Assembly: GCA_030625885.1 (NCBI GenBank)
Contig: DAOUPZ010000020.1
Coordinates: 3,728 to 67,727, forward strand
Length of the DNA stretch: 64,000 nucleotides
Source of the DNA: Clostridia bacterium
Lineage (GTDB): Bacteria; Bacillota; DAOUPZ01
Direction: 5' to 3'
Shown: positions 6,403 through 61,634 of the stretch, one piece after another
How the letters are laid out: each line of letters opens with the position of its first letter
Numbering within the stretch: position 1 is the stretch's first letter
Notes under the pieces: generated by a model
The model's input: only the letters and a program-made list of their open reading frames with translations
Database searches by the model: none
Told to the model about the DNA's origin: nothing
Made by a program: the position numbers and the translations under genes

Positions 6403-6435
6403 TAAGTCTTAATGAAAACCGCAGTATGTATTATA

Positions 6436-6687: not shown

Positions 6688-6741
6688 GATATCGCCTCCT
6701 ACTTATATTTTACCACTTATGTATAAAAATGGAATAGGAGA

Positions 6742-6772
6742 GCAAAAGAAAAACCCAGGAATTACTCCTGGG
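6742..6772 (-). terminator. Rho-independent terminator overlapping the stop of the 632-aa gene
   Basis: Minus strand reads CCCAGGAGTAATTCCTGGG followed by TTTTTCTTTTGC. Confidence 0.7.
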
Positions 6773-8660: not shown

Positions 8661-8665
8661 TATTA

Positions 8666-9250: not shown

Positions 9251-9389
9251 AAGATACCCCCTTTTTTCATAAGGTTATAATATATTTATTAATACAAAAT
9301 ATTTTCCAGTGTATTACTTCTCCAAATTCTTTCAATATCCTTCAATATATTTACATTTATTCCAATGCACATAAAATATATATTAAACT

Positions 9390-9420
9390 AAAAAAACAGG
9401 GCAGGAAATTAATCCTACCC
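9390..9420 (-). terminator. Terminator at the end of the lysis cassette
   Basis: Minus strand reads GGGTAGGA-UUAAUU-UCCUGCCC followed by TGTTTTTTT. The stem includes the holin stop codon. Confidence 0.65.
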
Positions 9421-9774
9421 CTTCATAACATCCGCCCACTGCTCCCCAAATTCAGCTTTAAGCCCTTTCAAGCTTGCTTCAATTAATCCTTTTATCTCTT
9501 CCTCTCCAATACTCAATCCATGTTTCCCCGCCTCTTGTGCCAACCATTGAGCTGCTTGCTCATATTTCTGTGACCCTTCAAACCCCCTGTAAAACTGCTG
9601 CACAAACTGTACTGCCAACCTAGCCAATTCCTGCTTTGCTTCCAACTCTTTCTGAATTCGCTGCATCTTCTCTACTCCAAGCTTACGTCTCAATAACTCC
9701 ACTAAAAAACCTGCCAGTATCGGTATAATAACCACTAGCAGGTCAGTCCCCAATTTTATTAACTTTGCTTCCAT
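9415..9774 (-). CDS. Holin-like protein (LL-H-type, N-terminal TM plus helical tail)
   Basis: 119 aa with a single N-terminal TM helix and a charged helical C-terminus. Immediately downstream of the endolysin. Confidence 0.5.
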   Translation of the reverse strand: MEAKLIKLGTDLLVVIIPILAGFLVELLRRKLGVEKMQRIQKELEAKQELARLAVQFVQQFYRGFEGSQKYEQAAQWLAQEAGKHGLSIGEEEIKGLIEASLKGLKAEFGEQWADVMKG

Positions 9775-20173: not shown

Positions 20174-20818
20174 TTATAGTACAAGCATCTGCCCTGGGTG
20201 TATTACATAATTGGGCTTAATCCTGTTTGCTGCTGCAACCGTTTTGTACTGTGATCCATCCCCTAATTGCGCTTTTGCAATCTTCCACAAGCTGTCACCG
20301 GGCTTAACAACATAGTTTTTCGGCTTCTCCCGTTCATCCGGCCTTTGGCTTGCTTTTGCTCCAATATTGATAGTGCCGCTTTTAACTTCTATTTGCCTAA
20401 TCTGAATGAACTTATATTCCTTAAGCTCTAAGTCGTAATAAATGGTTCCTACGTCGCCGGCTTTTTCCTCCGGCGTAAATGTCTCAATAGACACGGCAAA
20501 ATTTATATTTGTATTGGTAACAATAAACCGTATAGGCTTCCCGCTCTGTATCCAATCGTCAATAATTTCAACCGCGCGCTCCGGGCTTGGTATATCCTCA
20601 TATTCGCAATATGGCCCGTACACGGCAGGGAATTGGCTGCTAAAGGAAAATGTTTTCGCCTGCGGGTCTTGAATAACGGTTATCTCGCCCAGGCCCAATA
20701 CGTCTATACTTTCATTAGCAAAATTACGCGGCATTTTAAGCCTGGAAGGATTAACGGGGAGCTGTAATCGCTGCTCCCCGTTGTTAAAACTAAGCCAAAA
20801 CTGATATTTAGACCTCAT
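20174..20818 (-). CDS. LysM-domain tail protein (XkdP-like)
   Basis: C-terminal LysM 'YVVKPGDSLWKIAKAQLGDGSQYKTVAAANRIKPNYVIHPGQMLVL'. Confidence 0.75.
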   Translation of the reverse strand: MRSKYQFWLSFNNGEQRLQLPVNPSRLKMPRNFANESIDVLGLGEITVIQDPQAKTFSFSSQFPAVYGPYCEYEDIPSPERAVEIIDDWIQSGKPIRFIVTNTNINFAVSIETFTPEEKAGDVGTIYYDLELKEYKFIQIRQIEVKSGTINIGAKASQRPDEREKPKNYVVKPGDSLWKIAKAQLGDGSQYKTVAAANRIKPNYVIHPGQMLVL

Positions 20819-23800
20819 ACAACTCCTCGCCTCCTGTGTTAATATCTTCTGTCAATTGGCCTTTAATCTCGCTCATAACATCTTCAATATCCCGCATAGT
20901 TTTAATTACACGATCCCCAAACCTAAATTCATACTTCCGGTTGTCCTGGTGTATCTCTTGTTTATTATTTGTCGTGGTACTTTCTAATAGCTCCTGGGCC
21001 TTCTCTTCTTTAAGCGGCTGTGGTTGCTTACTATCCGAGTCAAGTTTAAAGCCGGTTTTCGCTTCTAAGTCAACTTCAAGGGGAGTTTTAGGGATTTTGT
21101 CAAGCGTATCGCTAACTGAATTATCCTTTATAACCTTTTGCGTAATGTTTTGGGTGAGATTGTTTAACCGTTCAAACTTGGCCGGGATAATTTTCTGAAT
21201 GATATCTTGGGTAATGCCTCCTAATTCTCTCAATTTAGCCGGGATAACCTTTTGGAATATGTTTTGTGTAAGATTCTCCGGCCCTGGTGCTGCTGCTTTT
21301 GCAACTTTTTGTACGATGCTTTGCTGCATATATTCAGGCTGAACGATTCTAGCAGGGATAACGTTTTGAACAATGCTTTGAGTAATATCGTCTAAATGTT
21401 TTATTTTAGCTTCTGCTACAGTTTGGATGATCTCCTGACTTAATCCTTGGGGCTGTCTCACTTCTGCCTCTTTGATATGCTGCAAAACATTCTGGGTAGT
21501 ATCCTGAGGTTTCTTTACTTCTGCAGCAACGAATTTCTGAATAATGCATTGTGTTGCATCTTTTATAGGTTGGATTTTGGCTTTAATTAATTTCTGAATA
21601 ACATTTTGGGTCCCATCCTCCGGTGCTTTTATTTCTGCTTGTATAAGTTGCTGCTGTATAGATTGTGTCATGGCTTCCGGTTGTACTGCTTTGGTTGGTA
21701 AGATCCTTTGCATAATGCTTTGGGTTATATCCTGCGGCTGTTCAATGTTGGCCTGTTTAGCCTTCTGCAATATATTTTGGTTCATGGATCCTGGCTGTGG
21801 AATACTAGCTTCAACAAATTCCTGCTTAACCATATGCGTTAATTCTTCCGGTTGCTTAATGTTTGCTGTGTTTACTACCTGGTTAATCTCCTGCGCTGCG
21901 CCCTCTATTTGCTGCATTTCACCTTGAACAAAGTTTTGCGTAATCGTTTGGGTAAGATCCTCGACATCATCTATTTTTGCAGGCATAACCTTTTGTATAA
22001 CGCTCTGCCCAACGTCCTGCGGTTGCTTGATATTAGCCGGAATTACCTCTTGATCTACTTTTGCTTCCGGCTGTGGAATTGGCGCGGCTTTTGGTGGGAT
22101 AATCTTTTGTGCAACATTCTGTGTAAGCTCCTCAACCCGTTCATCTTTCGCTGGAATAACATTTTGCGTAATATCCTGGGTCAAGGGTTCCAATGGTGCT
22201 ATTTCCGGCTGCAATAATTGTCTCGTTTCCTCTGCGGGTGTAACCTGGCTCCCTCTCGGAAGATTAATAAGCTCCGGTCCTTTTTCTCCTACGATTGCCG
22301 GACCACCTGGGTGAAAGTCTGTCCCGGTTGCATATTGTGGCATATCCCCTAGTATAGGTTGTGCTTCCTTCGGTGTGTCAAATTTAACTTCCTGGACGGC
22401 TTTAATATTAACTCCTTTACCGCCGATACCAGGAATCCAATCGGGAATTTTAATCTTGTTCAAAACACCTATAACCTCGTTGACTTTCCCGATAATAAAG
22501 TTTAATGACGTTTCCGCACCACTCTTCATACCTTCCCACATAGCGTTCATAATCCTCCGGGCTGTCTCACTCTTGTTATAAAGCAGTACCAACCCGGCTA
22601 CTAATGCTAATATTCCTATTATGATCCACGTTGTCGGAGACAATAGCATAACCGCATTGAGCGCGCCCTGTGCTGCTGCAACTGTCCATAAAGCTGCGCC
22701 CCTTGCATAATCTGCTCCGTATAGTGCAATAATTGCTATGGTCTCCGCTATGTCTGCCGCTTTTGCTATCCCGGAAGCTATAATATGACCGTATTGTGCT
22801 AATGCAAGGCCAACTAACACGCCCTTCTGTACGATCCATGCGGTTGTAAGTCCAACTATAGCTGCTTTAATGAGCTGCGCGTTGTCTCTTATCCACTCTA
22901 GCCCGGTTATAACTAAGTCCAACCCATTTTCTGTTAAACTTGCAAAATTAACTTCCGTATCCTGGGCCGCTTTTGAAAGATTAGGGAAAAATACTTCGTA
23001 AATTTCTCTTGTTACTTGCCCTATTTCTTTGAATTTGCTTGTTACCATCTGAATGAAATCTTCAAATGCGCTATCCCCTTCGACTAATTCTCCTCTTACT
23101 AATATCTTTCTAGGGGCAAATATTTTGTCAAAATATTCATCAAACGCGCTTTCACCCTCAACCATTTCCCCGCGTACTAATATCTTTCTAGGAGCAAACA
23201 TTTTATCAAACTTCTCATTAATCTTATCCGCTGCTTTACTGACGTATGGAGCAAATTTTTCTCCAATATTGAGCTTAAGGACTTTAATATTAGCCTTGAT
23301 TCGGTCAATGGAACGTCCAACGCCCTTCTGCATTCGCTCATATGCTGCGTCGGTTGCTCCTGCTGCGTCCTCCATTTCTAAAAGTGCCTGGGTGAACTTT
23401 TCTGTCCCTTTTCCTGTAAGGCCCAATGCTGCGTTCCCTGCTTCTACGGAACCAAAGAGATCGTTTATTCCTACTCCGCCTCTCTTTGCTCTTTTTTCCA
23501 GGAGCTGTAACGCGTCCTGGACGTCCCCACCATCCTTAATGAATTGCTTAAACGACTTACCGGATAGTGCTTCAAATGTCTCTGCTGTGTCTCCTCCGGC
23601 TTTTGATAGCTCAACGAACATTTGTCTAAGCTGTGTTGTTGCAACGCTTGTGGGCGTACCCTGGGCCGTAATAGCTGCCAACCCTGCTGATACGTCGCCA
23701 AACTCAACGCCTAATGCGGCCGCGCTTGGTATGACGTTAAACAAACTAGCCGATAATTCCTCAAAGTTTGTTTTCCCTAGCTTAACCGCCGTAAACATAT

Positions 23801-24299
23801 AATCGCTCGCCTGGGCTGCGGAAATAACGTCTGCCCCGTAAGCGTTTACGATTGATGAAATACCGTCAACCGCTGTTTCAAGCTCTGCAACGCCGCCGAT
23901 GGCTGCCTTCTGTGCTACAGCTAAAAAGTCAAATACATTGTCAGGAGGAACCCCCGCCGATAATGATTGATACAGGGCCGGAACAACCTTTTCGGGGAGA
24001 ACGGCAAACTCACGGCTAAAGTCCTTAACCTGGTCTGTCATTTCCCCCATAGCTTGATCCGTTATGCCGGGCATTAGCGTAAATACTTCGTTCATTCGGC
24101 CTTCAAACTGAATGAAATCCGCTGTTGCTGATACTGCGAACCCACTAACAGCGGTTACTATCGCTGCAATAGCAATTAATGCAACCTTTTGGAGTCGTTT
24201 AAATGCCTTCTGCATTTTCTCGGTTCTCCTAGTTACATTGTCGAGCCTGTTTGAGATCCGGTCATTCATGTTGAATATAGCTCTTACCGAAGCTGCCAC
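20808..24299 (-). CDS. Tail tape measure protein
   Basis: 1163 aa with a GVG-rich helical N-terminal half, internal TM segments and about 19 tandem 19-aa repeats. Lies downstream of the chaperone. GTG start with a GAGGGGG RBS. Confidence 0.85.
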   Translation of the reverse strand: MAASVRAIFNMNDRISNRLDNVTRRTEKMQKAFKRLQKVALIAIAAIVTAVSGFAVSATADFIQFEGRMNEVFTLMPGITDQAMGEMTDQVKDFSREFAVLPEKVVPALYQSLSAGVPPDNVFDFLAVAQKAAIGGVAELETAVDGISSIVNAYGADVISAAQASDYMFTAVKLGKTNFEELSASLFNVIPSAAALGVEFGDVSAGLAAITAQGTPTSVATTQLRQMFVELSKAGGDTAETFEALSGKSFKQFIKDGGDVQDALQLLEKRAKRGGVGINDLFGSVEAGNAALGLTGKGTEKFTQALLEMEDAAGATDAAYERMQKGVGRSIDRIKANIKVLKLNIGEKFAPYVSKAADKINEKFDKMFAPRKILVRGEMVEGESAFDEYFDKIFAPRKILVRGELVEGDSAFEDFIQMVTSKFKEIGQVTREIYEVFFPNLSKAAQDTEVNFASLTENGLDLVITGLEWIRDNAQLIKAAIVGLTTAWIVQKGVLVGLALAQYGHIIASGIAKAADIAETIAIIALYGADYARGAALWTVAAAQGALNAVMLLSPTTWIIIGILALVAGLVLLYNKSETARRIMNAMWEGMKSGAETSLNFIIGKVNEVIGVLNKIKIPDWIPGIGGKGVNIKAVQEVKFDTPKEAQPILGDMPQYATGTDFHPGGPAIVGEKGPELINLPRGSQVTPAEETRQLLQPEIAPLEPLTQDITQNVIPAKDERVEELTQNVAQKIIPPKAAPIPQPEAKVDQEVIPANIKQPQDVGQSVIQKVMPAKIDDVEDLTQTITQNFVQGEMQQIEGAAQEINQVVNTANIKQPEELTHMVKQEFVEASIPQPGSMNQNILQKAKQANIEQPQDITQSIMQRILPTKAVQPEAMTQSIQQQLIQAEIKAPEDGTQNVIQKLIKAKIQPIKDATQCIIQKFVAAEVKKPQDTTQNVLQHIKEAEVRQPQGLSQEIIQTVAEAKIKHLDDITQSIVQNVIPARIVQPEYMQQSIVQKVAKAAAPGPENLTQNIFQKVIPAKLRELGGITQDIIQKIIPAKFERLNNLTQNITQKVIKDNSVSDTLDKIPKTPLEVDLEAKTGFKLDSDSKQPQPLKEEKAQELLESTTTNNKQEIHQDNRKYEFRFGDRVIKTMRDIEDVMSEIKGQLTEDINTGGEELYEV

Positions 24300-47897: not shown

Positions 47898-48058
47898 TGT
47901 TTTCACTCCTTTCGTTCCCGATTGGCAACTTAATTATATTATCGTTTTGGCAACTTGTCAACCATTAAAGAGATATTTATTGTATTTTTGGCAACAAATA
48001 TTTCATATATGGCAACTATTTTATATAATATTTACCAAGGAGGTGCAATTATGGCAAC
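47684..48058. promoter_or_regulatory. Array of six TGGCAAC motifs in and around the cro/cI divergent region (putative operators)
   Basis: TGGCAAC at 47684, 47923, 47948, 47989, 48010 and 48052, all in the same orientation and five of six preceded by T. Confidence 0.45.
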
Positions 48059-48491
48059 TTTCTCGGATCGATTAAATATTTTGAGAAAAGAAAAAGGTAT
48101 TACATTAGATGCATTAGCTAAAGAATTAGAAACTACTAAGTCTACTCTTTCAAGATATGAAAATAATTTAAGAGAACCAAAAGCTGAGTTTGTAAATAAA
48201 CTTGCCAGTTTTTTTAACTGTAGTGTTGACTATCTCCTTGGAAAAACTGACATTCCTAATACAGAACATAAAGAACCTGAACTTACCACTAAAGATCACA
48301 AAGAAATCGAAACAATATTATCAGACACAGAAAAAGCCCTTCTCTCTCAGGAAGGACTTATGTTCAATGGCGAACCTGCATCAGAGGAAACAAGAAGAAA
48401 AATAATTGATGCTATGAGAATCGGTATGGAAATGGCTAAAAAGGAAGCCAAAGAAAAATATACACCAAAAAAATATAAAAAAGGTGACTAG
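48051..48491 (+). CDS. CI-like / ImmR-like XRE repressor
   Basis: 'FSDRLNILRKEKGITLDALAKELETTKSTLSRYENN'. Start set at the ATG 6 nt after AAGGAGG; the longer track ORF has no RBS. Confidence 0.8.
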   Translation: MATFSDRLNILRKEKGITLDALAKELETTKSTLSRYENNLREPKAEFVNKLASFFNCSVDYLLGKTDIPNTEHKEPELTTKDHKEIETILSDTEKALLSQEGLMFNGEPASEETRRKIIDAMRIGMEMAKKEAKEKYTPKKYKKGD

Positions 48492-48494
48492 CAA

Positions 48495-48923
48495 ATGAGT
48501 ATTAGAGACATCGTAGATAAACACATCAAGAAATATAATACTAATGACCCTTTTGAAATTGCTCAACATAAGAACATTGAGATTATCAAGCAAGACTTAG
48601 GTGATGTCAAAGGTTTTTATCAATATTTCAAAAGAAAGAAAATGATTTATTTAAATTACTCTCTCTCTGATCATGAACAAAGAATAGTTTGCAGTCATGA
48701 GCTTGGACATGCTATTTTGCATCCCAGGCTTAATGTTGTTTTCTTGGAGCTAAATACCTACTTTACTAAAAACAAATTTGAAATTGAAGCCAATAAGTTT
48801 GCCGCTGAATTGCTTATTAATGAAGATTATATTGATAAGTTTGTGCTTGAAAATATGAGTATTGAACAAATTAGTAATTATTTTGAGGTACCGAAAGAAT
48901 TGGTGCTGTATAAGTTCAGTTAG
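48495..48923 (+). CDS. ImmA/IrrE-family metallopeptidase (anti-repressor protease)
   Basis: 'CSHELGHAILH' plus 'EIEANKFAAELLI'. Lies 4 nt downstream of the repressor gene, as in ImmR/ImmA pairs. Confidence 0.8.
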   Translation: MSIRDIVDKHIKKYNTNDPFEIAQHKNIEIIKQDLGDVKGFYQYFKRKKMIYLNYSLSDHEQRIVCSHELGHAILHPRLNVVFLELNTYFTKNKFEIEANKFAAELLINEDYIDKFVLENMSIEQISNYFEVPKELVLYKFS

Positions 48924-50263: not shown

Positions 50264-51643
50264 ATGAAAGAGGTAACAGAATTAACAAGAGAGAATGTTT
50301 TAGAAATCCTTTTCAATTCATTTAACTACGGTAATTTAGGCTTGTTTATTGGTGCGGGCTTTTCAAAAGCTGTTATAAATGATAGTTTTAACACCGCTTT
50401 ATCCTGGGGAGAATTAATTGAAACAGCATGCAAAGAAATAGGGGTTTGCGAACCACAAGATGAAATAGTAATAGGTATGTCATTCCCAGAAATATCTACT
50501 AAAATTTGTGATACAATCTCTAATGAAAAACATGTCCCGTATGAAGATGCAAAAACGATGTTCAAAAAAACATTATGTAATTTAACTAATTGGCTTCCGG
50601 ACGAAGAAAACACAAGTATTTTTAGCGAATTATTAAAACAAATAAATCCTTCTTGGATTATTACAACTAATTATGATTTAGTAATAGAAAGACTTTTAAC
50701 AGGAAAATGTGTGACATTAGGTCCTAATGATTATTTAACAACTCCTAGAGGTGTAATCCCTATTTATCATTTACATGGTATTCGACTTGATCCAGACTCA
50801 ATTATCATTAATCAGGAAGATTATGTGCAGTTATTTAGACCGAATGAATATAGACAAATTAAACTAGCATTGACAATTAAAGAGTCCACTACTTTAGTTC
50901 TTGGATACGGTTTAGGAGATGTAAATGTACTTTCTGCCGTAGATTGGTCAAAAAACATATTTAAAGAATCTAACGAATATCCACACGAAATTATTCAGGC
51001 TATAAGGACTGAAAATCCTTCAAACGAACCATATAAAGATAAAAACGGAAACATAATAATTGAAATAAAAGAGATAGAAGATTTCTTGCAAGAGTTTGTA
51101 GAGTTTCTGGATATTCGTAATAAAGAATACGATAAACGATTAGAAAGACTCTATGAAATAATTGGGGATTTAACGGATAATAGAGCAGAACAAGTTAATA
51201 TTTTTATTAACAATCAAGATAAAAGATTAAGTTTATTAGCCTTATTATCAGAATTTGAGCTACATATGGTTTCTCCTTATATTGATTTTATATCAGCGTG
51301 TATTGACAAAACATGGGAAGATTCATCTAAGGATGGTAATTTTAATGCTTACGACCAGTATTTAAAAATATTACTTGATATAGTTATTAATTATAAATAC
51401 AATAAAATGCCACCAGCATTATTTGAATTTGTTGCTTATTCACTTGACAAGGTTTTTAGATATATTGGTGACAGCGAAAAGCATTTATATTATGGCGATA
51501 GTTGGGATGCTACAAGAACATGGCATAATAACAAAAAATATATTCCAGATAAAATGATTAAAGAGCTATACCATTACTCTAAACAAAACTATATGCTACA
51601 ACTTCATAAGAAAGTCAAAAAATTAATTGAGTGTCCTTCATAA
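50264..51643 (+). CDS. SIR2-like (SIR2_2-type) NADase-family protein with helical C-terminal domain
   Basis: 'LFIGAGFS', 'IITTNYDLVIE', 'IYHLHG', 'INQEDY' and 'LVLGYGLGD' are the ordered motifs of the defence-associated SIR2 family. RBS GAGGTGA. Confidence 0.75.
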   Translation: MKEVTELTRENVLEILFNSFNYGNLGLFIGAGFSKAVINDSFNTALSWGELIETACKEIGVCEPQDEIVIGMSFPEISTKICDTISNEKHVPYEDAKTMFKKTLCNLTNWLPDEENTSIFSELLKQINPSWIITTNYDLVIERLLTGKCVTLGPNDYLTTPRGVIPIYHLHGIRLDPDSIIINQEDYVQLFRPNEYRQIKLALTIKESTTLVLGYGLGDVNVLSAVDWSKNIFKESNEYPHEIIQAIRTENPSNEPYKDKNGNIIIEIKEIEDFLQEFVEFLDIRNKEYDKRLERLYEIIGDLTDNRAEQVNIFINNQDKRLSLLALLSEFELHMVSPYIDFISACIDKTWEDSSKDGNFNAYDQYLKILLDIVINYKYNKMPPALFEFVAYSLDKVFRYIGDSEKHLYYGDSWDATRTWHNNKKYIPDKMIKELYHYSKQNYMLQLHKKVKKLIECPS

Positions 51644-51783
51644 AATTACTATGAATAGTTAGTAACAATTTGATATGTATGATATAGTAAAATATTGTTA
51701 TTACACATCGTCTGAAATTTAAAATTTCTCCTTCAATTATTTAATGACCTCTCCCCTTCTATCACAACCTAATAACAACTAAA

Positions 51784-51809
51784 GATACATCCTATGGGTG
51801 TATCTTTTT
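51784..51809 (+). terminator. Terminator within cassette-boundary element copy A
   Basis: GATACATCC-TAT-GGGTGTATC followed by TTTTT. Confidence 0.65.
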
Positions 51810-51992
51810 AACTTTTATGGAATTTTAAGGAGGTAATTATCTATTTTTGTCAAATATATATTTGTAACAATAAAAATATAAGTTATCTTTTCAAGAAGAA
51901 TATTGAATGCTTTAAGTATATATAAATTTCACTTATATAGTTGATTAATTATTTTTTATTTGATAGACTTTACTTTTTTTGGGGGTATGTAT

Positions 51993-53480
51993 ATGAATAA
52001 ACTAAGGAAAAGCCCATTTAAGCTGGACAAAATAGAAAAAAACCCAACTGGGTTTGGACTAAGAATAAAACAAATAACTGAATGCTTTCAAAATTTATAT
52101 AATAATCGAAGCTTAATTATATCTGGTCCAAGAGGTATTGGAAAATCTTCTTTAGGAGTACAATTACAAAATGTTTTTGCAGGTGATAATACATTACTTA
52201 AAAGGTGTTATATAAACGAAGAATTCCCTAACTCAGTATGCATCTATAAAGCCTGTTCCAAACAAGATACACTTGATCAAATAACTTTAGACATTTTATC
52301 AGACTTAGAAAATGAAGTAAAAAACCTTCAATTAAATTTTAATTGTAAATTAAATGCTTGTTTAGAATTTAATTTTGGCCCAATTAAAGCACAAATAAAC
52401 GCTGAAAAAGACAAAAAGGAATATTTACCTTCTACAATGGCAAATATTTTAGCAAATAGCTTAATAAAAACTATTTGTACATTTAACAAAGATAATCTTA
52501 ATTTAGGAATAAATATAATGCTAGACGAAATGGATCAACTTAATAGAGATATTAATTTTGGACACTTCATTAAAGTTGTAAATGAAACACTTAACAATAA
52601 AGGTGTGGAAAATATCACCTTTATTGTTGCTGGTCAAACTGGTATATTTAATAGATTTAATAATGAAGATAGATCATTTGAAAGAATTGTTAAACATATA
52701 CCTATTTCACCTCTAGATGAAGAGGCATGTGAATATATATTACTCTATGCACAAGATAAAGCTAAACCACCCTTTACAATACAACAAAATGCTAAAAAAA
52801 TGATTCTTTCATTAGCTTCAGGATATCCCTATGTAATACATTTAATTGGAGATGCTGCTTTTTTTAAAATGAAGAATGAAAAAACAATGACATCCATTGA
52901 TGTACTTAGTGGAATTGAAAATATTTTACAAAGCAATAAAAAAGAAAAATATATTGAAAAATTAAAACATATTAATCCTTTTGAAAGAAAAGTTATTATT
53001 ACTTTATCCCAGTACCACAGTAATGAAATTCCAGTTAAAATACCCATTAACTGGATACTTGATAGACTACTTAATAAAAATAATTCAATTGACAAAATTC
53101 AATCCTGTTTAGAATGTTTAGTTGAAAAGGGATATCTTAAAGTAAAAAGTACCCCACCAAATAATAATAAACTATATTATTTTGCCGAAGAATTATTTAG
53201 AGTTTTTGTTTCTCTTAAAAGAATTGAAAAATATGAAGTAGATGTTAATAGAAGATACAAAGACAACGAAAACTATTATCAAGCAAACATTGATCGCCCA
53301 TACCAATTGGACGAAAATTCATATAATGATCAATACTTTTTTGAGCATGAAATTGATAATGAACTAACTTATGAAATTAATAGTACAAGAATTGACGAAG
53401 TAATGAATGAGCTTGAAGAAGCAGAATACGATCCGGATTTTGAAGATACCGAACTAGACATTCTATATTATGATGAATAA
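51993..53480 (+). CDS. ORC/Cdc6-like P-loop ATPase with C-terminal winged-helix-like region and acidic tail
   Basis: Walker A 'ISGPRGIGKSSL' and Walker B 'NIMLDEMDQL'. C-terminal 'LECLVEKGYLKV'. Start chosen 7 nt after GGGGG. Confidence 0.65.
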   Translation: MNKLRKSPFKLDKIEKNPTGFGLRIKQITECFQNLYNNRSLIISGPRGIGKSSLGVQLQNVFAGDNTLLKRCYINEEFPNSVCIYKACSKQDTLDQITLDILSDLENEVKNLQLNFNCKLNACLEFNFGPIKAQINAEKDKKEYLPSTMANILANSLIKTICTFNKDNLNLGINIMLDEMDQLNRDINFGHFIKVVNETLNNKGVENITFIVAGQTGIFNRFNNEDRSFERIVKHIPISPLDEEACEYILLYAQDKAKPPFTIQQNAKKMILSLASGYPYVIHLIGDAAFFKMKNEKTMTSIDVLSGIENILQSNKKEKYIEKLKHINPFERKVIITLSQYHSNEIPVKIPINWILDRLLNKNNSIDKIQSCLECLVEKGYLKVKSTPPNNNKLYYFAEELFRVFVSLKRIEKYEVDVNRRYKDNENYYQANIDRPYQLDENSYNDQYFFEHEIDNELTYEINSTRIDEVMNELEEAEYDPDFEDTELDILYYDE

Positions 53481-53646
53481 ATGATGTCTAATTAACCTAT
53501 TAGAGGTATATGATTCTGATACCATGGAAATGAGCATTGAAACAACATAATAATACGTATGATCTTTCTGAACACTTAACCGTTACTGAAAGATTAATTA
53601 AAAAACGGTTAGTAATAAAATGAAAATTAAACAAGAATTATGAAAA

Positions 53647-53672
53647 GATACATCCTAGCGGTGTAGCTTTTT
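53647..53672 (+). terminator. Terminator within cassette-boundary element copy B
   Basis: Imperfect hairpin GATACATCC-TAG-CGGTGTAGC followed by TTTTT. Confidence 0.5.
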
Positions 53673-53782
53673 AACTTTTATGGGATTTTAAGGAGGAATT
53701 TGTTAATTTTTGTGGAAATATGTTAATTGTATGTTATTAATATGTGTCTTAATCCACTCTCTATGAATTTGGGAGGTCTATT

Positions 53783-54499: not shown

Positions 54500-55069
54500 A
54501 TGGAGAAAATATTTAAAGACATTGATGATAGCTTCTGGAAACAATTTAGGTCATATCTAACTAGCAAACAACAAATAAATAGTAAATTAGCTAATAAATA
54601 TCAAACTATAATTGAACATGCCTCATTATCGATTTTTATTAGCTTTTTGAAATCAAAAAATTGGAATTATACTTTATCTGGATACTCAGATACTTGGAGA
54701 TCAGGCGACAAAAATATTCAAAAAATTAATAATATTTTCGATATGTTTGAAACATTTATCCAACACAATAATTATGATCATTTAACAGAGAATGATACAG
54801 ATTGTTTTTGGGACAAATTCAAAGAATATTTACAGGAAAAAAAGAAGCTAAAAAATAAAACTGCTAATGAATATAAAGCTACTATGAGACGCGCTTCAAT
54901 ATTAATCTTCTTTAGTTTATGTGATAACCCTTATATATTATCGGGTTATAAAAATCTTAAAGGATCAAAAGAAATACATAAATCATCAAAATATTTTTAT
55001 GATTTTATTTCTACTCAATGGACTGAAATACAAAAATATGATATTAATGGTCAACTTAATTTATTTTAA
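54500..55069 (+). CDS. Internally duplicated helical hypothetical protein
   Basis: Two ~88-aa repeats share FW.(K/Q)F..YL......K.AN.Y......AS..IF.S......Y.LSGY. RBS GGGAAGG. Confidence 0.5.
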   Translation: MEKIFKDIDDSFWKQFRSYLTSKQQINSKLANKYQTIIEHASLSIFISFLKSKNWNYTLSGYSDTWRSGDKNIQKINNIFDMFETFIQHNNYDHLTENDTDCFWDKFKEYLQEKKKLKNKTANEYKATMRRASILIFFSLCDNPYILSGYKNLKGSKEIHKSSKYFYDFISTQWTEIQKYDINGQLNLF

Positions 55070-55291: not shown

Positions 55292-55359
55292 AACCCAAAT
55301 ATATCCAAAAATTGCTGTAACCATCATTATAAAGTTTTGTGCTAATGGGTTTTTCCAAT

Positions 55360-55405
55360 CTGCAATCCTGAATACACTTTGTACAAAGTGTATTCAGGAT
55401 TGCAG
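55360..55405. repeat. Perfect 46-bp palindrome at the istB truncation point
   Basis: CTGCAATCCTGAATACACTTTGT / ACAAAGTGTATTCAGGATTGCAG, verified base by base. Confidence 0.9.
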
Positions 55406-55573
55406 ATGAAAGAAATAGTTACTATCTTCTGCACTCAACTAAAGATAGAAGATTGGCACATAAAACTAGGTGATGGTGTTCTGGCTGATTCAATTCTAGA
55501 TAGAATAGTACATCGTTCACTGCGTATTAATGCAAGTAGCATAAATATGCGTGAAATTGAATCTGACTTATAA
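55406..55573 (+). pseudogene. IstB (IS21 helper ATPase) C-terminal fragment
   Basis: 'KEIVTIFCTQLKIEDWHIKLGDGVLADSILDRIVHRSLRINASSINMRE' matches the conserved IstB C-terminus (..W......lAdAilDRlvH......G.S.R). No Walker motifs are present. Confidence 0.65.
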
Positions 55574-55791
55574 TTTGTTTCAGCACTGCTTCTGAAAATA
55601 CGAAGCGGTACTGATGCATGAATTGCTAGTGCTAATACCGTGAATTCAAAGTGCTGCTACTATGAACTACCGGTGCTATTGTTGTGAAATAACCAATCAA
55701 ACAGGCAACACTGATTTTATTACTACATTATGGAAGATTAAGTATGTTCGATTATTACCTTTCCTATCCTCTATAGATAAATTAAATAATA

Positions 55792-55843
55792 CATAAAGCT
55801 AAAAGCTGCACCCATATTTTTAGGTACAGCTTTTAGCTTTATG
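55792..55843. terminator. Long hairpin (17-bp perfect stem) between convergent units
   Basis: CATAAAGCTAAAAGCTG with an 18-nt loop and CAGCTTTTAGCTTTATG. Lies 16 nt past the stop of the 672-aa gene. Confidence 0.6.
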
Positions 55844-55858
55844 TATTTAAATCAAATA

Positions 55859-57877
55859 CTATAAAAAATAACTTTTGAAATACTCTCTTGTTTTTATATC
55901 TTTAAACCAAACATAACATCCTTTTCTACCTCTTGTTAAGAGTATACGATAAATATTACTAAACAACATTAAGATATCTTTGTTATTACGTTTAGGGCTA
56001 TAATTTTGAACAAGTGACACTAGTTCGTCCGCTTCTTTTGTTACAAGCCATTGTTTACGTTGCTGGTCATATCTCAAACGCTCCTGTTCTATTCCATATA
56101 ATTTAGCAATAAACCCCTTATCCTGACTATTATTAATATCAAAGCACCATTTTTGCCCATCCCAATAAAAATCATCACCAAAAATAACACCTACATACTC
56201 AAAATCAAAGCCTTGTACTGTATATACACAACCCACTTCATCGAATAAAGGATCCATATTACTATACCATTCATAAATTACATTTCGTTCAGGAAAAACC
56301 CTAGGATTTTTATTCCATGGCTTTTTCCAAATTCCTAAAGGCGTCTCGATAACAATGTCATCAATCAGTTTTTTGCTCTTATCTGGATCTGTCCATGGCC
56401 AACAAAACCCTGCAACAATTCTAGTTCTTATTCCTGTATGTTTTCTTTTATCTTGTAGTAATTTCTCCATCTCAAAGGGAGTATCACAAACCTTAATGTC
56501 ATATTTATTCTTAGCTTCCTGGCTTGCGAAAGAATCTCCCCCCTCAAAAAGCTTATATAATTTTTCCAAATAATCTTGATTGTAACCACAACGATGTTGG
56601 GTTTTTAACTTTTTCATAACTTTCTTTTCAACAGTAATTTTTCCTTTACTGTTAATAATATGTATACACTTATTAATATTATCTAAAGTCCCTTTTTCCG
56701 AAGGACCAATAATTTGATTTTCATCTAAAAGAAAAATCGTAACCTTTGAACGCTTAATTAATTCTATAATATTATTCTCATTTGTGATCCTATGGGCTTC
56801 ATCCACAATGGAAAGACAAGTAACAGTATTATCGTTTTTCAAGTGTGTTACTACATTATATGTATTTGGAAAAAGATTCTTAGAATTTATTGAATTGCTT
56901 TTACCATTATCATCACCCAAATAACCGCCTATGACATGGCAAATTGCCCTTGAAGGTGATGAAATAGATACAGATTCCAAAGACCAATTATATTTTTTTG
57001 CCTGTGTATGATACCATGCAAACAATTCTAATCCTACAGCAGTTTTCCCAGAACCTGGTGTACCTTGAATAATAATTACGGAATGTTTTTGAGAATAGTT
57101 CTTAAAATTAATTACCTCTCTTATTATTTTACAAGCTTCCATATATACATTTTGTTGTTCCTCGACCATTGTCAAAAGATGTTCACCATTTTTATATTTA
57201 GCATAATTTTCAAACAAATCGTTATCAGGTATATATTCACCATCTGTAATTAATTTATAATCACTTTTATTATTCTCACTTTCAAATAGTGAGCATAAAT
57301 AATCTCTAAATTCTTCCTTATTACGAGCACAAAACAAAATATTATCCCTCTTATATTTACCAACTTCATATTTACCAGAAATTAATATGTGTTCGTCAAG
57401 TAAATTATGCAAAAACGCACAAGCCTCTATGGTTATGTTCTCTTTACGTACAATTGAATGGTTCATTTCTAAGTATTTTTTATATGTAAGTACTTGTGCC
57501 AAAGGATGTTCCCTTTGTTCTTCGAACTGCTCTTGAACCATAATAACTGTGCTAATCTCTTTACCTTCAGTTGGTTTAACCGTGGTCCATTGTTTTAACT
57601 CTACTAATAAAGCAACAGGTAATTTTGTTCTTTTACTTATTCCAACTAAAATTGCGTCCACTCTTTTGTTATTAAAGGGTAAGCTATATTCTAATATTAT
57701 ATCAAGATTACTTAAGCCAGCCTCTTTTAAGATATTAATAAGCTCCGGTAATGAATTTTCCCATGACAATCGTTCATTTTCTTTAACACTATACCCTGAA
57801 GCATTTTCTAACATACTTGCAATTTCCTCTCCACTTTTATCTAAAAGTGGAGAGACTGAACCAGCATACAGATACAT
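55859..57877 (-). CDS. PD-(D/E)xK-like nuclease N-domain fused to P-loop helicase-like ATPase (DUF2075 / Schlafen-type, Nhi-like architecture)
   Basis: N-terminal 'RVDAILVG...LLVELKQW' (D..E.K), Walker A 'IIQGTPGSGKTAVG' and Walker B 'LSIVDEAHRI'. RBS GAGGTGA lies 7 nt upstream, just after the HNH gene stop. Confidence 0.7.
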   Translation of the reverse strand: MYLYAGSVSPLLDKSGEEIASMLENASGYSVKENERLSWENSLPELINILKEAGLSNLDIILEYSLPFNNKRVDAILVGISKRTKLPVALLVELKQWTTVKPTEGKEISTVIMVQEQFEEQREHPLAQVLTYKKYLEMNHSIVRKENITIEACAFLHNLLDEHILISGKYEVGKYKRDNILFCARNKEEFRDYLCSLFESENNKSDYKLITDGEYIPDNDLFENYAKYKNGEHLLTMVEEQQNVYMEACKIIREVINFKNYSQKHSVIIIQGTPGSGKTAVGLELFAWYHTQAKKYNWSLESVSISSPSRAICHVIGGYLGDDNGKSNSINSKNLFPNTYNVVTHLKNDNTVTCLSIVDEAHRITNENNIIELIKRSKVTIFLLDENQIIGPSEKGTLDNINKCIHIINSKGKITVEKKVMKKLKTQHRCGYNQDYLEKLYKLFEGGDSFASQEAKNKYDIKVCDTPFEMEKLLQDKRKHTGIRTRIVAGFCWPWTDPDKSKKLIDDIVIETPLGIWKKPWNKNPRVFPERNVIYEWYSNMDPLFDEVGCVYTVQGFDFEYVGVIFGDDFYWDGQKWCFDINNSQDKGFIAKLYGIEQERLRYDQQRKQWLVTKEADELVSLVQNYSPKRNNKDILMLFSNIYRILLTRGRKGCYVWFKDIKTREYFKSYFL

Positions 57878-57896
57878 TGTGTTTTCACCTCTAGAT

Positions 57897-58871
57897 CTAC
57901 AAATGATAATTTATAGTTATTGATTCTACATAACCATTTGAATAGCATACTTCCTTCTTTTTTCGATCAAATTTCCCCTTTGCTTTATGAATTAGCCGAT
58001 GATGGTTAGGACAGAGTATCATAATATTTTCAGGGGAATTATTTTGAGTCAAGGCAAACTCCTGAATATGATGTGCTTCTACAACAGATACTCCATAATC
58101 ATCCAAGCCACTATGACCACAAATTTGGCAGCAATGGTTATACTTTTCCTTCAATTCATCAATTATCTTTTTATTATATTTCCGAACCTTTTTCAGTCCT
58201 TCTTTAACTTCGACCGAGGCTTCTTGATCCAAAGATTGAAGATACGAACTAAATTGCTCATCTGTCATATCTAATACACTATTTTCTAACTCTCTCTCTC
58301 CTTTGGTTTCCAGTTCACCTTTAAATCTAATCAAGGTATCTTTCAGTTTCGAGTTCGTAAGAAAGCTAATTGCATCATTTATACTACCATAGTTATTAAT
58401 GATTTCATCAAGAGTATTTGAATTTATTCTATTAAATCCTTGAGGAACAAAATTTTGCTTATATCCAAAAAAACTTGCGAATTCAGTACGATCTAAATTG
58501 ATTGACTGTAAATCTGTGATGAAATATATATATTCCCATGTCTTCCCATCATTATCTTTATCCCAGACAATTTCAGCTAATTTCCTATTATGGGTTTTAG
58601 TTAGAATAGTACCGTAGTAAAGAAACGTACCTTTAGAATAAACAAGAACTTTATCCCCCTTTTCCATCTTTGCCCATCTTGGTATATTCTGATCCCCTGG
58701 TACAGCACCCCACATATTTACTTCTTCAGCCTGGCCAGCTCTTTTCAATTCTTGTAGTACATCTTCATCCAACAAGTCACTATAACGACCAATTGGGGAT
58801 TTATTTTCTATTGTGTCTTCCAAATGTTTTTGAGCTATTTTATTACTGGCTGTAAAATAAAATAAATTCAC
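57897..58871 (-). CDS. PUA-like (EVE/ASCH-like) reader domain fused to HNH endonuclease
   Basis: C-terminal 'CCQICGH...VEAHHI...MILCPNHHRLIH' (HNH). N-terminal 'WGAVPG..RWAKMEKGDKVLVYSKGTFLYYGTI' is a beta-barrel-like pattern. GTG start. Confidence 0.65.
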   Translation of the reverse strand: MNLFYFTASNKIAQKHLEDTIENKSPIGRYSDLLDEDVLQELKRAGQAEEVNMWGAVPGDQNIPRWAKMEKGDKVLVYSKGTFLYYGTILTKTHNRKLAEIVWDKDNDGKTWEYIYFITDLQSINLDRTEFASFFGYKQNFVPQGFNRINSNTLDEIINNYGSINDAISFLTNSKLKDTLIRFKGELETKGERELENSVLDMTDEQFSSYLQSLDQEASVEVKEGLKKVRKYNKKIIDELKEKYNHCCQICGHSGLDDYGVSVVEAHHIQEFALTQNNSPENIMILCPNHHRLIHKAKGKFDRKKKEVCYSNGYVESITINYHL

Positions 58872-58905
58872 CTTAAATTCACATCCTTCTTATCTAAATT
58901 ATTTA

Positions 58906-59238
58906 TTACTCTAATTCGTTATATTTTTTATTTGAACCAAATGCTTTTTCAACAGGATATTTGTTCTCGTTTTTAAGCAACTTTTCTTCAATTGTCTGTT
59001 TCAAATTAATGTCTAATTCATGTGATAATAATAAAAGATAAATCGCAATATCAGCAATTTCTTCTTTCATATTTTCTAGTTTCATACTTACCGCTTCTTC
59101 ATTGCTTTTCCATTGAAAACATTCTAATAACTCACTCGATTCAATAGACAATGAAATTGCTAAATCTTTTGGATTATGATATTGCTTCCAATTACGCTCA
59201 TCTCTAAATTGAATTATTTTTTCCATTAAATCTTTCAT
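58906..59238 (-). CDS. MazG-like nucleoside triphosphate pyrophosphohydrolase (small all-alpha NTP-PPase)
   Basis: 110 aa with 'ESSELLECFQW' and 'EEIADIAIYLLLL', the paired EExxE/D metal-binding helices of MazG/dCTPase-like proteins. Confidence 0.7.
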   Translation of the reverse strand: MKDLMEKIIQFRDERNWKQYHNPKDLAISLSIESSELLECFQWKSNEEAVSMKLENMKEEIADIAIYLLLLSHELDINLKQTIEEKLLKNENKYPVEKAFGSNKKYNELE

Positions 59239-59298
59239 TTCTATTCCTCCATTTAAAGTTAAAGAAAATCCCTTGTTATGTTGTGTAATGTAAATAAA

Positions 59299-59598
59299 TC
59301 ATCTGTTATTCACCAAACGAATTATCTTCTTATTTTCTAAATCTATTTCACAGTGATTAGTAAATCCTATTGCATACGCCGTAGTATCATTAATTCTAAT
59401 TATATTAAAATACACTTCTTCAAAATATTTAAGATTTTTTTCTTTAGAATAGTTATTTAATAATTCTTCAATCTTCCACAAAATTTCACCATTATAACTT
59501 CTAGCTAATAAATTGTTTATGTTATACGAACCAGGTTTGCCTTCTTCTCCTTCGCGTAGTTCTAAAACACATGATTTAAATTGGAATTTTTTGATCAT
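59299..59598 (-). CDS. Hypothetical protein (first gene of the minus-strand accessory operon)
   Basis: 99-aa ORF with RBS GAGGTGA. No recognisable domain. Confidence 0.45.
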   Translation of the reverse strand: MIKKFQFKSCVLELREGEEGKPGSYNINNLLARSYNGEILWKIEELLNNYSKEKNLKYFEEVYFNIIRINDTTAYAIGFTNHCEIDLENKKIIRLVNNR

Positions 59599-59794
59599 AC
59601 TATCACCTCAAATTCATAAATCTATGTATACTTCTACCACAAAACTCCAAATCCTTGCAAAAATAATATTATTTGTTATAAATTACAAGGATATTTGTGA
59701 TTTATATTGAGTGATTATCGAACACACGTTCTTGATAGTATAATCAAGTACATTGCTCATCTGATATAATTTATTCAAGCACAAGTATGAAAGG

Positions 59795-61351
59795 ATGATT
59801 GCTTTGAAAGCAGCAGCATATGTAAGATATTCAAGTGATAACCAAAGAGAAGAATCGATTGAAGCACAGTCGCGCGCAATCAAGGAATATGCAGAGCGTA
59901 ACAATATGACAATCGTAAGAATATACGCTGATGAAGCAAAGTCAGCAACTACTGATGATCGGCCACAATTTCTTCAAATGATTAAGGATAGTGGACTTGG
60001 TATATTTGACGTTATCATTGTCCACAAATTGGACAGGTTTGCTAGAAATCGATATGACTCTGCCTTTTATAAGCGCGAACTGCGTAAAAATGGCATAAAG
60101 CTTATGTCCGTACTGGAAAACCTGGATGATAGCCCAGAAAGCATTATCCTGGAATCTGTACTCGAGGGAATGGCTGAATACTATTCTAAAAACCTTGCCC
60201 GGGAAGTTATGAAAGGGATGAAAGAAACTGCTCTTCAATGCAAGCATAATGGAGGCATACCGGCCCTAGGATACGATGTAAAAGAGGACAAAACTTATAC
60301 CATTAATGAAGAGGAAGCACGCATTGTACAGCTTATTTTCGAACTGTATGCACAAGGAAAAAGCTACAACTATATCATTAATACACTAAATGAAAAAGGA
60401 TATAAAACCAAACGCGCTAATCCATTCGGCAAAAATAGCATTCACGATATTTTAGTTAATGAAAAATACGTTGGAACTTATGTTTTTAATCGCACGATTT
60501 CTAAAGTAAATGGGAAAAGGAATCACCATCATTCAAAAGATGAATCAGAAATAATTAGAGTTGAAAATGGTATTCCTGCGATAGTTAGCAAAGAAGTTTT
60601 CGAAGCAGTAAAAATGCGAATGAATAAAAACAAGCGGGGCACCGGAGAACGTAAAGCTAAAGAAGTATATCTGCTCTCTGGGAAAATATTCTGTGGCAAG
60701 TGTGAAGGTGCATTGGTAGGTAATAGACGCTATGCAGGCAGAAATAAAACATTATACCTTACGTATGAATGCTCTACTCGTAAGCGAAATAAAACTTGCG
60801 ATGCAAAAGGAATAAATAAAGAGTATATTGAAAATGATGTTATTGAGGAACTAAAAAACAGATTATTCTCACCTGAAGCTATTGAAACCATTACAGATAA
60901 ATTATATAAATTTACTCAAAACCAAAATAAAGAAATAACCGGAAGCATCAAACAATTTGAAAAGGAACTGAATTCTACACAAAAAGAAATAGATAACTTG
61001 ATCAATGCTATTGCTGCAGGAATGTTTCATCCATCTATGAAAGATAAAATGGATCAGCTTGAATCCAAGAAAACAGAATTAACGATCATGCTCAATGAAG
61101 CAAAAATGCAAAAGCAGATTAACTCACCTACTAAAGAAATGATCACAGGATATTTTATGAAAGATATTAATATAAAAGAAAAAAGCCTGGAAGATCAAAA
61201 ACAGATCATCCAAGCTTATGTAACGCGTGTAATAGTATATGAAAACAACATCGATATTGAGTTGATTGTGGATATTGATGGTGGAGGTGAGGGGAATCGA
61301 ACCCCTGTCCGAAAGCGTTTTCATTCAAGCTTCTACGAGTGTAGCCTTTGA
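59795..61351 (+). CDS. Large serine recombinase (prophage integrase)
   Basis: 'AAYVRYSSDNQ' catalytic-Ser region, a recombinase domain, a zinc ribbon 'CGKCEG..YECSTRKRNKTC' and a coiled coil. A TTG at 59804 with better RBS spacing is an alternative start. The last 20 codons lie beyond attR in antisense ssrA. Confidence 0.85.
   Translation: MIALKAAAYVRYSSDNQREESIEAQSRAIKEYAERNNMTIVRIYADEAKSATTDDRPQFLQMIKDSGLGIFDVIIVHKLDRFARNRYDSAFYKRELRKNGIKLMSVLENLDDSPESIILESVLEGMAEYYSKNLAREVMKGMKETALQCKHNGGIPALGYDVKEDKTYTINEEEARIVQLIFELYAQGKSYNYIINTLNEKGYKTKRANPFGKNSIHDILVNEKYVGTYVFNRTISKVNGKRNHHHSKDESEIIRVENGIPAIVSKEVFEAVKMRMNKNKRGTGERKAKEVYLLSGKIFCGKCEGALVGNRRYAGRNKTLYLTYECSTRKRNKTCDAKGINKEYIENDVIEELKNRLFSPEAIETITDKLYKFTQNQNKEITGSIKQFEKELNSTQKEIDNLINAIAAGMFHPSMKDKMDQLESKKTELTIMLNEAKMQKQINSPTKEMITGYFMKDINIKEKSLEDQKQIIQAYVTRVIVYENNIDIELIVDIDGGGEGNRTPVRKRFHSSFYECSL
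61279..61290. repeat. attR core (TGGTGGAGGTGA)
   Basis: Exact repeat of 4901-4912. Equals the complement of the tmRNA 3' end. Confidence 0.85.
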
Positions 61352-61634
61352 TTTAAGTTTCGCACCTCAGTCTCCCAAAGGCGGGATACTTTAGCACTAG
61401 GTCAGATTGATGTCCCACTGTTCCTACTGACCTGAAGGACCAGTGGCAAGCCTGTAAAGTTGACGTCCTAGTCTAGCCACACAGGCTTAGGCTAGCAGGA
61501 CGTTAGCAGAACTAAGCTGCTAAAGCGTAATTTTCTTCTGCGTTTAATTAAAGGTCCACCGTTTAACGAGACCAGGTGGGATCTCGACTCGCAACTCAAA
61601 CTTCAACTGCCCCCGTCGAAGCCAAAACACCCCC
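61279..61634 (-). ncRNA. ssrA: tmRNA (ssrA)
   Basis: 5' GGGGGUG pairs with 3' CACCUCCACCA, including the G3:U wobble. T-arm GGGGUUCGAUUCCCC. Tag ORF GCAGAAGAAAATTACGCTTTAGCAGCTTAG encodes AEENYALAA* at 61512-61541. Confidence 0.9.

Follow-up and report, generated by a model that had tools for sequence, protein, structure and literature searches.

A MazG-like pyrophosphohydrolase gene is linked to a PUA-like reader gene across phyla and in the cargo region of a clostridial prophage

Why should a nucleoside triphosphate (NTP) pyrophosphohydrolase be encoded immediately beside two predicted nucleases in the cargo region of a prophage? The question is raised by a four-gene unit in a 64-kb stretch of contig DAOUPZ010000020.1 from a Clostridia bacterium; the whole stretch is referred to here as the window, and coordinates given without a locus name are positions in it. 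A reading made from the letters alone (the sequence-only reading) had placed four co-oriented genes at 55859-59598, and they were recovered at exactly these coordinates, all on the minus strand. Overall, the unit is probably best explained as cargo made up of a MazG/PUA-HNH two-gene module, a separate Nhi-like helicase, and an unrelated small gene (g99), an explanation that we prefer with moderate confidence. The four genes and their domains are listed below.

59299-59598, minus strand: small protein of 99 amino acids (aa), g99, the first gene of the transcription unit and outside the conserved module
58906-59238, minus strand: MazG-like protein, 110 aa, a predicted all-alpha NTP pyrophosphohydrolase of DCTPP1/RS21-C6-like type
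57897-58871, minus strand: PUA-HNH protein, an open reading frame (ORF) of 324 aa with a GTG start, whose homologs share the start MNLFYFTAS
58362-58871, minus strand: PUA-like (EVE/YTH-like) reader domain, about residues 1-170 of the 324-aa protein, from an AlphaFold2 (AF2) model and Foldseek
57897-58136, minus strand: HNH (His-Me finger) domain, about residues 246-324 of the 324-aa protein plus the stop codon, from Pfam
55859-57877, minus strand: DUF2075 nuclease-helicase, an ORF of 672 aa
57383-57775, minus strand: PD-(D/E)xK nuclease-like domain, about residues 35-165 of the 672-aa protein, from its invariant motif and PADLOC PDC-S41
55898-57082, minus strand: DUF2075/Schlafen group-3 superfamily 1 (SF1) helicase domain, residues 266-660 of the 672-aa protein, from PF09848

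MazG and the PUA reader form a conserved two-gene module across phyla. Loci were gathered by scanning GTDB representative genomes, metagenomes, and IMG/VR with an alignment of the 324-aa family, which gave 157 non-redundant loci, and every fetched locus was checked for the other three proteins. For the linkage counts we used the 50 PUA loci with room upstream, with 98 loci matching only the HNH part as controls. A MazG-like gene lay directly upstream on the same strand in 39 of the 50 PUA loci, while MazG was found anywhere in just one of the 98 HNH-only loci (Fisher p = 1.6e-24), and the two genes were mostly separated by -1 to 43 nt. MazG goes with the reader, not the nuclease, being upstream in 17/21 loci of PUA-HNH type and in 22/29 whose reader was fused to other partners, among them NucS-like and Mrr nucleases, a McrB-type AAA+ ATPase, a STAND-like NTPase, and unknown domains. 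Pairwise identities of the MazG and PUA proteins co-varied (Mantel r = 0.63; 0/2000 permutations as high), and DNA similarity between the window and other loci (L088, L097) covered the MazG and PUA-HNH genes as a single block. Carriers were found in Bacillota, Actinomycetota, Bacteroidota, Pseudomonadota, Campylobacterota, Cyanobacteriota, Patescibacteria, and Cloacimonadota, and archaeal members of the reader family are encoded on haloarchaeal plasmids and by an Archaeoglobus provirus. Clustering of the neighbors gave no third conserved gene, with no further family present in more than 6 of the 39 MazG-PUA pairs; the recurrent neighbors were phage terminase, portal, and C5-methyltransferase genes.

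An apparent MazG-PUA-HNH fusion in Halobacterium (a 404-aa protein) was rejected, its extra N-terminus being a helix-turn-helix domain. A common mobile backbone was also rejected, as DNA similarity was limited to the MazG and HNH coding regions and the IstB and integrase fragments of A. clausii are unrelated to those of the window. A DNA search of a phage collection with the locus returned only weak matches in the MazG region. On Peribacillus simplex plasmid pSHB26 (L187, 2784-8419), genes encoding a NucS-domain nuclease, a truncated MazG-like protein, and a PUA-HNH protein adjoin two divergently oriented DNA cytosine methyltransferase genes.

The 110-aa protein is, as predicted from its sequence, a bona fide PF12643 MazG-like all-alpha NTP pyrophosphohydrolase. 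It matched PF12643 at 2.6e-20 in the Pfam search (72.9 bits vs. a cut-off of 27) and phrog_3301 'pyrophosphatase' in PHROGs, and its PDB matches were an archaeal pyrophosphatase structure (4qgp, 1e-22) and mouse/human dCTP pyrophosphatase 1 (DCTPP1, 1.7e-16). The paired acidic motif behind the original MazG call is present as ExxE...ExxD (E33xxE36 ... E60xxD63), with all four residues invariant in 39 PUA-linked MazG homologs.

For the 324-aa protein, modeling predicts a PUA-like reader joined to an intact HNH domain, the layout of type IV modification-dependent restriction enzymes, a class that includes fusions of PUA-superfamily domains to HNH nucleases (PMC6765204, PMC7897488). The HNH motif first read as CxxC..HH..CPNHH is there as C248xxC251, H267H268, and C287PNHH291. 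Across 19 homologs there is no variation at C248, H267, N282, C287, R292, or H295 and very little at H268 and H291. Pfam returned HNH_2 (1.6e-6) and HNH (1.4e-4), both over the Pfam cut-offs, and weak matches were obtained to PADLOC mREase_IV and NCBIfam 'PT-DNA_restrict'. A profile of the family searched against PDB matched EcoKMcrA (6ghc, 5e-10) and also TagI (6ghs, 2.6e-4), with all matches over the HNH part and none over the reader, and no Pfam family, EVE included, was found on residues 1-200 at E <= 0.01. The AF2 model of residues 1-180 was confident, with a predicted local distance difference test score (pLDDT) of ~90 (88-96 over residues 1-170). Its top Foldseek match in PDB was the EVE-HNH restriction enzyme VcaM4I (6yex, 6.6e-7), and it aligned with the N-domain of T. 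gammatolerans McrB (TgMcrB) bound to DNA containing 5-methylcytosine (m5C or 5mC; 6p0g) at a template modeling (TM) score of 0.69. Further Foldseek matches were PH1033, YTH, ASCH, THYN1, and 2eve, and a BFVD structure search with the reader matched viral EVE and ASCH proteins. The reader falls outside EVE at the sequence level but has the fold of the PUA superfamily (EVE/YTH/ASCH), and the VcaM4I and TgMcrB matches, along with the intact HNH residues, uphold the PUA-like/HNH call of the sequence-only reading. Conserved aromatic residues of the reader are W54, W66, W103, W112, Y114, and Y137. No C5-methyltransferase gene was found in the window by tblastn with three queries, N6- and N4-methyltransferases not being searched for.

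The predicted architecture of the 672-aa protein is Nhi-like, with a PD-(D/E)xK nuclease and a DUF2075 SF1 helicase carrying Walker A and B motifs. The D..ELK, GTPGSGKT, and VDEAH motifs reported before are all present (D74 ... E93-L-K95; Walker A G272TPGSGKT279; Walker B V358DEAH362), and residues D74, E93, L94, K95, Q96, K278, D359, and E360 are invariant in 28 homologs, as is Walker A from G272 to K278. The protein matched SLFN-g3_helicase (= DUF2075, PF09848) at 2.4e-67, and among PADLOC models it matched PDC-S41 at the N-terminus (4.6e-20) and Nhi over residues 222-420, the helicase core only (1.4e-7). In the structure model the N-terminal nuclease region has a beta-sheet core, and Foldseek matched the helicase model to SLFN11, Dna2, RecD2, and Upf1. 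The likeness to DUF2075/Schlafen ATPases and to Nhi that the sequence-only reading suggested is thus borne out by the PF09848 match, by SLFN11, and by the Nhi-type layout. Nothing more than ~30% identical to the 672-aa protein was found in a large protein collection.

No family match to g99 was found in Pfam, PADLOC, NCBIfam, or PHROGs, nor any homolog by word-based search; exhaustive phmmer recovered 15 remote homologs of ~100 aa with a conserved C-terminal half, conserved residues being L46, L47, G78, I92, and N98. These point to a real but rare small-protein family. No g99 homolog was found near a MazG or PUA locus among the loci examined, and the quartet as a unit was therefore rejected. 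The co-conservation across genomes that the sequence-only reading would expect of the quartet held for the MazG/PUA pair, extended to DUF2075 only in some close relatives, and never included g99, whose own relatives lie elsewhere. The gene for one homolog (P0165 in L093) begins 30 nt past that of a 2018-aa Rhs/YD-repeat protein, with an orphan YD-TNT toxin module after it, a classic place for an immunity gene; those in L092 and L094 lie in unrelated contexts and not after a toxin. The C-terminus of the L093 Rhs toxin gave no Pfam match. As a lead and not a finding, g99 might possibly be an orphan immunity protein against an Rhs-type toxin. Typical of toxin-immunity arrays, the L093 region (915-9726) places the g99 homolog between the Rhs/YD toxin and a YD-TNT fragment, which has a small gene of its own further downstream.

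The arrangement of the four genes and their place in the prophage are defined by the following features.

55794-55841, minus strand: intrinsic terminator-like hairpin, a 20-bp stem then a T-rich tail, closing the four-gene unit
55379-55573, plus strand: IS21 IstB C-terminal remnant (PF01695 3.7e-8, profile positions 186-231 only), a boundary
59795-61351, plus strand: large serine integrase with Resolvase, Recombinase, and Zn_ribbon_recom domains (phrog_95 integrase 5e-127), a boundary
61279-61634, minus strand: transfer-messenger RNA (tmRNA) gene, whose 3' end overlaps the 3' end of the integrase gene

Intergenic gaps in the unit are 60, 34, and 19 nt, and a Shine-Dalgarno-like sequence precedes each of the four genes, GAGGTG starting 6 nt past the stop codon of the HNH gene. 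Both the gaps and the ribosome-binding site directly after that stop had been described from the letters, and ORF spacing agrees. The sole strong terminator-like site in 55300-60000 is the 20-bp stem (55841-55794) immediately 3' of the last gene. Because promoter-like matches around the operon were no more frequent than in shuffled sequence, co-transcription of the four genes is something we infer and do not assert. The serine integrase and the IstB fragment flank the unit, with a CI and ImmA lysogeny module (47955-48923) on the far side of the latter; the slot between integrase and insertion sequence remnant was correctly seen as prophage cargo, and the operon occupies the integrase-proximal cargo position between the integrase and the CI/ImmA module. 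Read from left to right, the prophage has holin and endolysin genes at 9.4-10.4 kb, large minus-strand ORFs at ~10-40 kb that form a structural block by size and position alone, and RecT, Gam, RepO, and DnaC-like genes at 42-45 kb.

The host element of the window is a temperate prophage integrated in the tmRNA gene. The last 73 nt of the serine integrase gene (61279-61351) overlap the 3' end of the tmRNA on the opposite strand, and the prophage therefore seems to rebuild the tmRNA 3' end from its own integrase-coding DNA. A repeat search of the window found no long attachment-site repeat at the prophage ends, as expected for a serine integrase. Elsewhere the window is dense in defense genes. 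A SIR2_2 protein (with PADLOC PDC-S25, LmuA-like, and ThsA-like matches) followed by a 506-aa STAND/AAA-like ATPase is encoded on the plus strand at 50264-53480 and probably constitutes another defense system of the same cargo region; positions 664-2293 hold an AbiEi/AbiEii toxin-antitoxin pair (PADLOC 1.9e-88 and 3.7e-74), and a 641-aa protein with a CapP/RmrA-like M78 peptidase domain is encoded at 6762-8687. Two copies of a 70-nt direct repeat (87% identical; 51781-51850 and 53644-53713), each a hairpin then GGAGG, stand just 5' of a cargo gene (starts 51960 and 53783) and look like recurring cassette junctions. Another direct repeat, of 71 nt and 85% identity (5292-5362 and 6690-6760), flanks the genes at 5385-6402 near the presumed left end of the prophage. 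A 189-aa protein (54500-55069) is made of two similar halves (FWKQFRSYL...ANKYQT...ASLSIFISF and FWDKFKEYL...ANEYKA...ASILIFFSL), each weakly like the SAM-like N-domain of phage integrases. The 1163-aa ORF at 20808-24299, whose size and position suggest the tail tape-measure gene, contains a tandem pair of 78-nt copies with 78% identity (23059-23214).

How, then, might the pair work? Given the observed folds, intact catalytic motifs, and gene linkage with its statistics, we propose that the locus, presumably expressed in the lysogen, encodes a type IV restriction enzyme with a conserved nucleotide-sanitizing partner, although this goes beyond fold, motifs, and linkage. The PUA reader would dock on DNA carrying a non-canonical base, for which a 5-substituted pyrimidine other than plain 5mC is the probable candidate, and the HNH domain would then cut the reader-bound modified DNA. 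MazG would hydrolyze the free triphosphate of the reader's base to the monophosphate, keeping that base out of the carrier's DNA, including any nucleotides salvaged from DNA that the nuclease has just destroyed, so that no self-attack would follow. MazG might also starve a phage dependent on the modified triphosphate, which is compatible with self-protection. Since the link of MazG to the reader does not depend on the effector, it is simplest to suppose that the MazG substrate and the reader's ligand would share one modified base, as a free triphosphate in the first case and within DNA in the second. Homologies favor a cytosine-5 derivative as the target base; according to PMC7162842 and PMC13291643, DCTPP1-type enzymes hydrolyze dCTP and 5-modified dCTP to the monophosphate, preferring these, and DCTPP1 prevents misincorporation of methylated or otherwise modified cytosine into DNA. 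By analogy with Nhi, the 672-aa protein would act against phage replication intermediates on its own, independent action being most likely, and in Bacillota and Streptomyces proteins of its type are often parked beside the pair. A broader generalization is possible but tentative, and we would not call it probable: MazG and the PUA-like reader may form the center of an immune module that is widespread and concerned with a single modified nucleotide, in which MazG would replace the self-protection part of a methyltransferase by base exclusion, the effectors (HNH, NucS-like, Mrr, McrB, STAND) would be interchangeable, and DUF2075 would have been recruited repeatedly as an accessory processor.

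The place of the helicase is where the first proposal and ours part. With g99 removed, that proposal becomes an integrated system of three components, which we regard as unlikely: modified DNA would be marked or nicked by the reader-nuclease and processed by the DUF2075 helicase-nuclease, in a split like that of McrB/McrC. In unbiased scans, no DUF2075 gene lay within 8-10 kb in any of 55 non-redundant PUA loci, while 4 of 102 HNH-only loci had one, DUF2075 being common defense-island cargo. Scanning IMG/VR with a DUF2075 alignment yielded no confirmed match. Coupling of a nucleotide pyrophosphohydrolase with nucleases, as the sequence-only reading had it, thus stood for MazG and the PUA protein (39/50 vs. 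1/98; Mantel 0.63) but not for DUF2075 in these distant loci (0/55). We also examined the neighbors of close 324-aa relatives (>=42% identity), which fall into nine lineages. DUF2075 genes adjoin PUA-HNH in four (C. butyricum, C. beijerinckii, the metagenomic L095, and A. clausii); the pair occurs alone, with no DUF2075, in three (L087, L088, L097), as it does in a more distant Bacillus prophage (L090, 35% identity), and PUA-HNH occurs alone in one (L192). In C. butyricum, C. beijerinckii, and L095 the DUF2075 gene flanks PUA-HNH, L095 with three copies in the order DUF2075-MazG-DUF2075-PUA-HNH-DUF2075; in A. clausii an internally deleted DUF2075 gene sits exactly between MazG and the nuclease gene; and on a Streptomyces plasmid a divergently oriented DUF2075 gene stands beside a frameshifted MazG and a PUA protein. 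All of these favor integration, as do the fusion of the reader elsewhere to a McrB AAA+ domain or its position beside an SF1 helicase-nuclease (L056, L112), and the 19-nt gap to the DUF2075 gene in the window with no terminator between. The DUF2075 copies near PUA-HNH are only 24-30% identical to the window protein or to one another, except for the L089/L095 group, and are non-orthologous; hence the neighborhood arose several times, which again suits integration, and a shared orthologous DUF2075 lineage traveling with PUA-HNH was rejected. Set against it are the scans, the four relatives with the pair alone and the one with PUA-HNH alone, the variable gene order and distance, and the facts that Nhi (S. 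epidermidis SERP2475) suffices for defense as a single gene and that the Millman et al. 2022 screen includes, among its defensive proteins, a 'Nhi-like' one with this layout. Neither order, distance, nor presence is fixed. We read the DUF2075 gene as a facultative neighbor, the product of recurrent co-parking, with cooperation between the proteins as a serious competing view. In L095 (3374-10939; same arrangement in L096), the three DUF2075 paralogs are 32-47% identical, and the cluster around the MazG-like and PUA-HNH genes lies upstream of a set of tyrosine recombinase genes.

Two further alternatives concern the pair itself. The PUA domain could bind a free modified nucleotide and trigger abortive infection by the HNH domain, with MazG making or clearing the ligand by conversion of a deoxynucleoside triphosphate to the monophosphate (dNMP). 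A preprint on the PUA-Cal-HAD systems reports activation of a PUA domain by m6-dAMP, fusions of that PUA-like family to HNH, McrB, TIR, and HEPN effectors, and rare MazG variants (PMC12871103); the reader family studied here swaps effectors alike, among them a STAND-like NTPase that is no DNA cutter, and MazG chemistry gives exactly a dNMP. Nevertheless, no HAD or calcineurin-like partner is present among the four proteins or recurrent near the 39 pairs, and the top structural matches of the reader are DNA readers (VcaM4I and the TgMcrB N-domain with m5C DNA), so that a nucleotide sensor appears distinctly improbable. Less probable still is that MazG and PUA-HNH serve the phage, as a lytic DNA-metabolism or packaging module (a terminase-associated HNH or a pool sanitizer) and not host defense. 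Several copies do lie in phages between replication genes and the small terminase gene (L090, L097, and IMG/VR loci), often with a phage C5-methyltransferase nearby, and PHROGs families exist for both proteins. The window pair, by contrast, is ~20 kb from the likely terminase- and portal-size ORFs (~32.7-37.7 kb, by size only) and has an integrase-proximal cargo slot and its own terminator among other defense genes, while many other copies are chromosomal or plasmid-borne in defense-island-like settings, archaea included, and the reader has been exchanged among restriction effectors of the McrB, Mrr, and NucS types.

Several observations nonetheless weigh against a MazG/PUA-HNH restriction module with an independent helicase. 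MazG is not obligatory, because 11 of the 50 PUA loci are without it. Several phage- and plasmid-borne copies of the pair (L097, L184-186, L187) have C5-cytosine methyltransferase genes no more than a few kb away, which makes a cytosine-5 target awkward and speaks against plain 5mC in all sequence contexts. In 5-6 phage loci the pair is just upstream of terminase genes, a position also used by packaging HNH proteins. DUF2075 occurs beside four of the nine close relatives and on one Streptomyces plasmid, above the ~3% background, which could mean real cooperation, and in two lineages it is inserted between MazG and the nuclease gene. The immunity role suggested for g99 rests on a single genomic context.

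If the MazG/PUA-HNH module works as proposed, it bears on a gap in how type IV restriction is understood. These enzymes are usually seen as solitary and without a safeguard, and here there is a linked, co-evolving pyrophosphatase partner in many phyla. The pair suggests a general solution for cells that degrade modified DNA, which could in this way avoid re-using the released modified nucleotides and attacking themselves; alternatively, it may strike a second blow at phages with modified genomes, through their nucleotide pool. With a module of ~1.3 kb and obvious catalytic residues, the idea is directly testable. The locus is also a concrete case for whether Nhi-like helicases cooperate with adjacent systems, and, were the substrate defined, the reader-nuclease could serve as a reagent for mapping DNA modification. 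The coupling of MazG with PUA-HNH is real, widespread, and essentially undescribed as a defense module: no MazG partner is described in the literature searched on PUA/EVE-HNH enzymes, and neither the pair nor its MazG member has a PADLOC model. The nearest statements are a remark that SauUSI homologs adjoin MutT homologs and the use of MazG in place of calcineurin by rare PUA-HAD systems (PMC12871103). The adjacency itself may not be wholly unrecorded, having perhaps been noted in passing in 2017, when unannotated bacterial HNH proteins encoded beside MazG-family genes were classed as His-Me finger 'Group 23' (Jablonska et al. 2017, PMC5714182).

The 672-aa protein shares with Nhi and the 'Nhi-like' protein an N-terminal PD-(D/E)xK nuclease, an SF1 helicase overlapping DUF2075, and a C-terminal domain, although its sequence is nearer to PDC-S41, an untested PADLOC candidate, than to the model for Nhi. 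The 110-aa protein has the fold family and the catalytic acidic residues of DCTPP1/RS21-C6 (1.7e-16 to the mouse/human enzymes); it differs in being bacterial or phage-borne, only 110 aa long, and genetically linked to a modified-DNA reader, and the house-cleaning of 5-modified dCTP that is the established role of DCTPP1 is for this protein only proposed. Like the VcaM4I/TspA15I group, the 324-aa protein combines an N-terminal PUA-superfamily reader with a C-terminal HNH, VcaM4I being its top Foldseek match. The tblastn search gave no C5-methyltransferase gene in the window, which agrees with the rule reported by Lutz et al. 2019 (PMC6765204), but such genes do occur near the pair in other loci. 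Unlike in that group, the reader is without detectable sequence similarity and is structurally at least as close to the YTH-like N-domain of McrB as to VcaM4I. Its HNH domain is related in sequence to EcoKMcrA, TagI, and ScoMcrA (6ghc 5e-10; 6ghs 2.6e-4; weak 'PT-DNA_restrict'), with all scores far under the family cut-offs, whereas the readers of those enzymes are NEco, SRA-like, and SBD domains and not PUA-like. 'Group 23', compared by description, has an HNH beside MazG and is probably the same adjacency, yet the paper tied it to MazEF stress regulation, with neither a reader domain nor a reading as restriction or defense. Also compared by description, the PUA-Cal-HAD family resembles the present one in a PUA-like sensor swapped among HNH, McrB, and other effectors, in its nucleotide-hydrolyzing partners, and in its rare MazG variants; the window locus differs in being without calcineurin-CE or HAD, and here MazG is a separate upstream gene and the rule.

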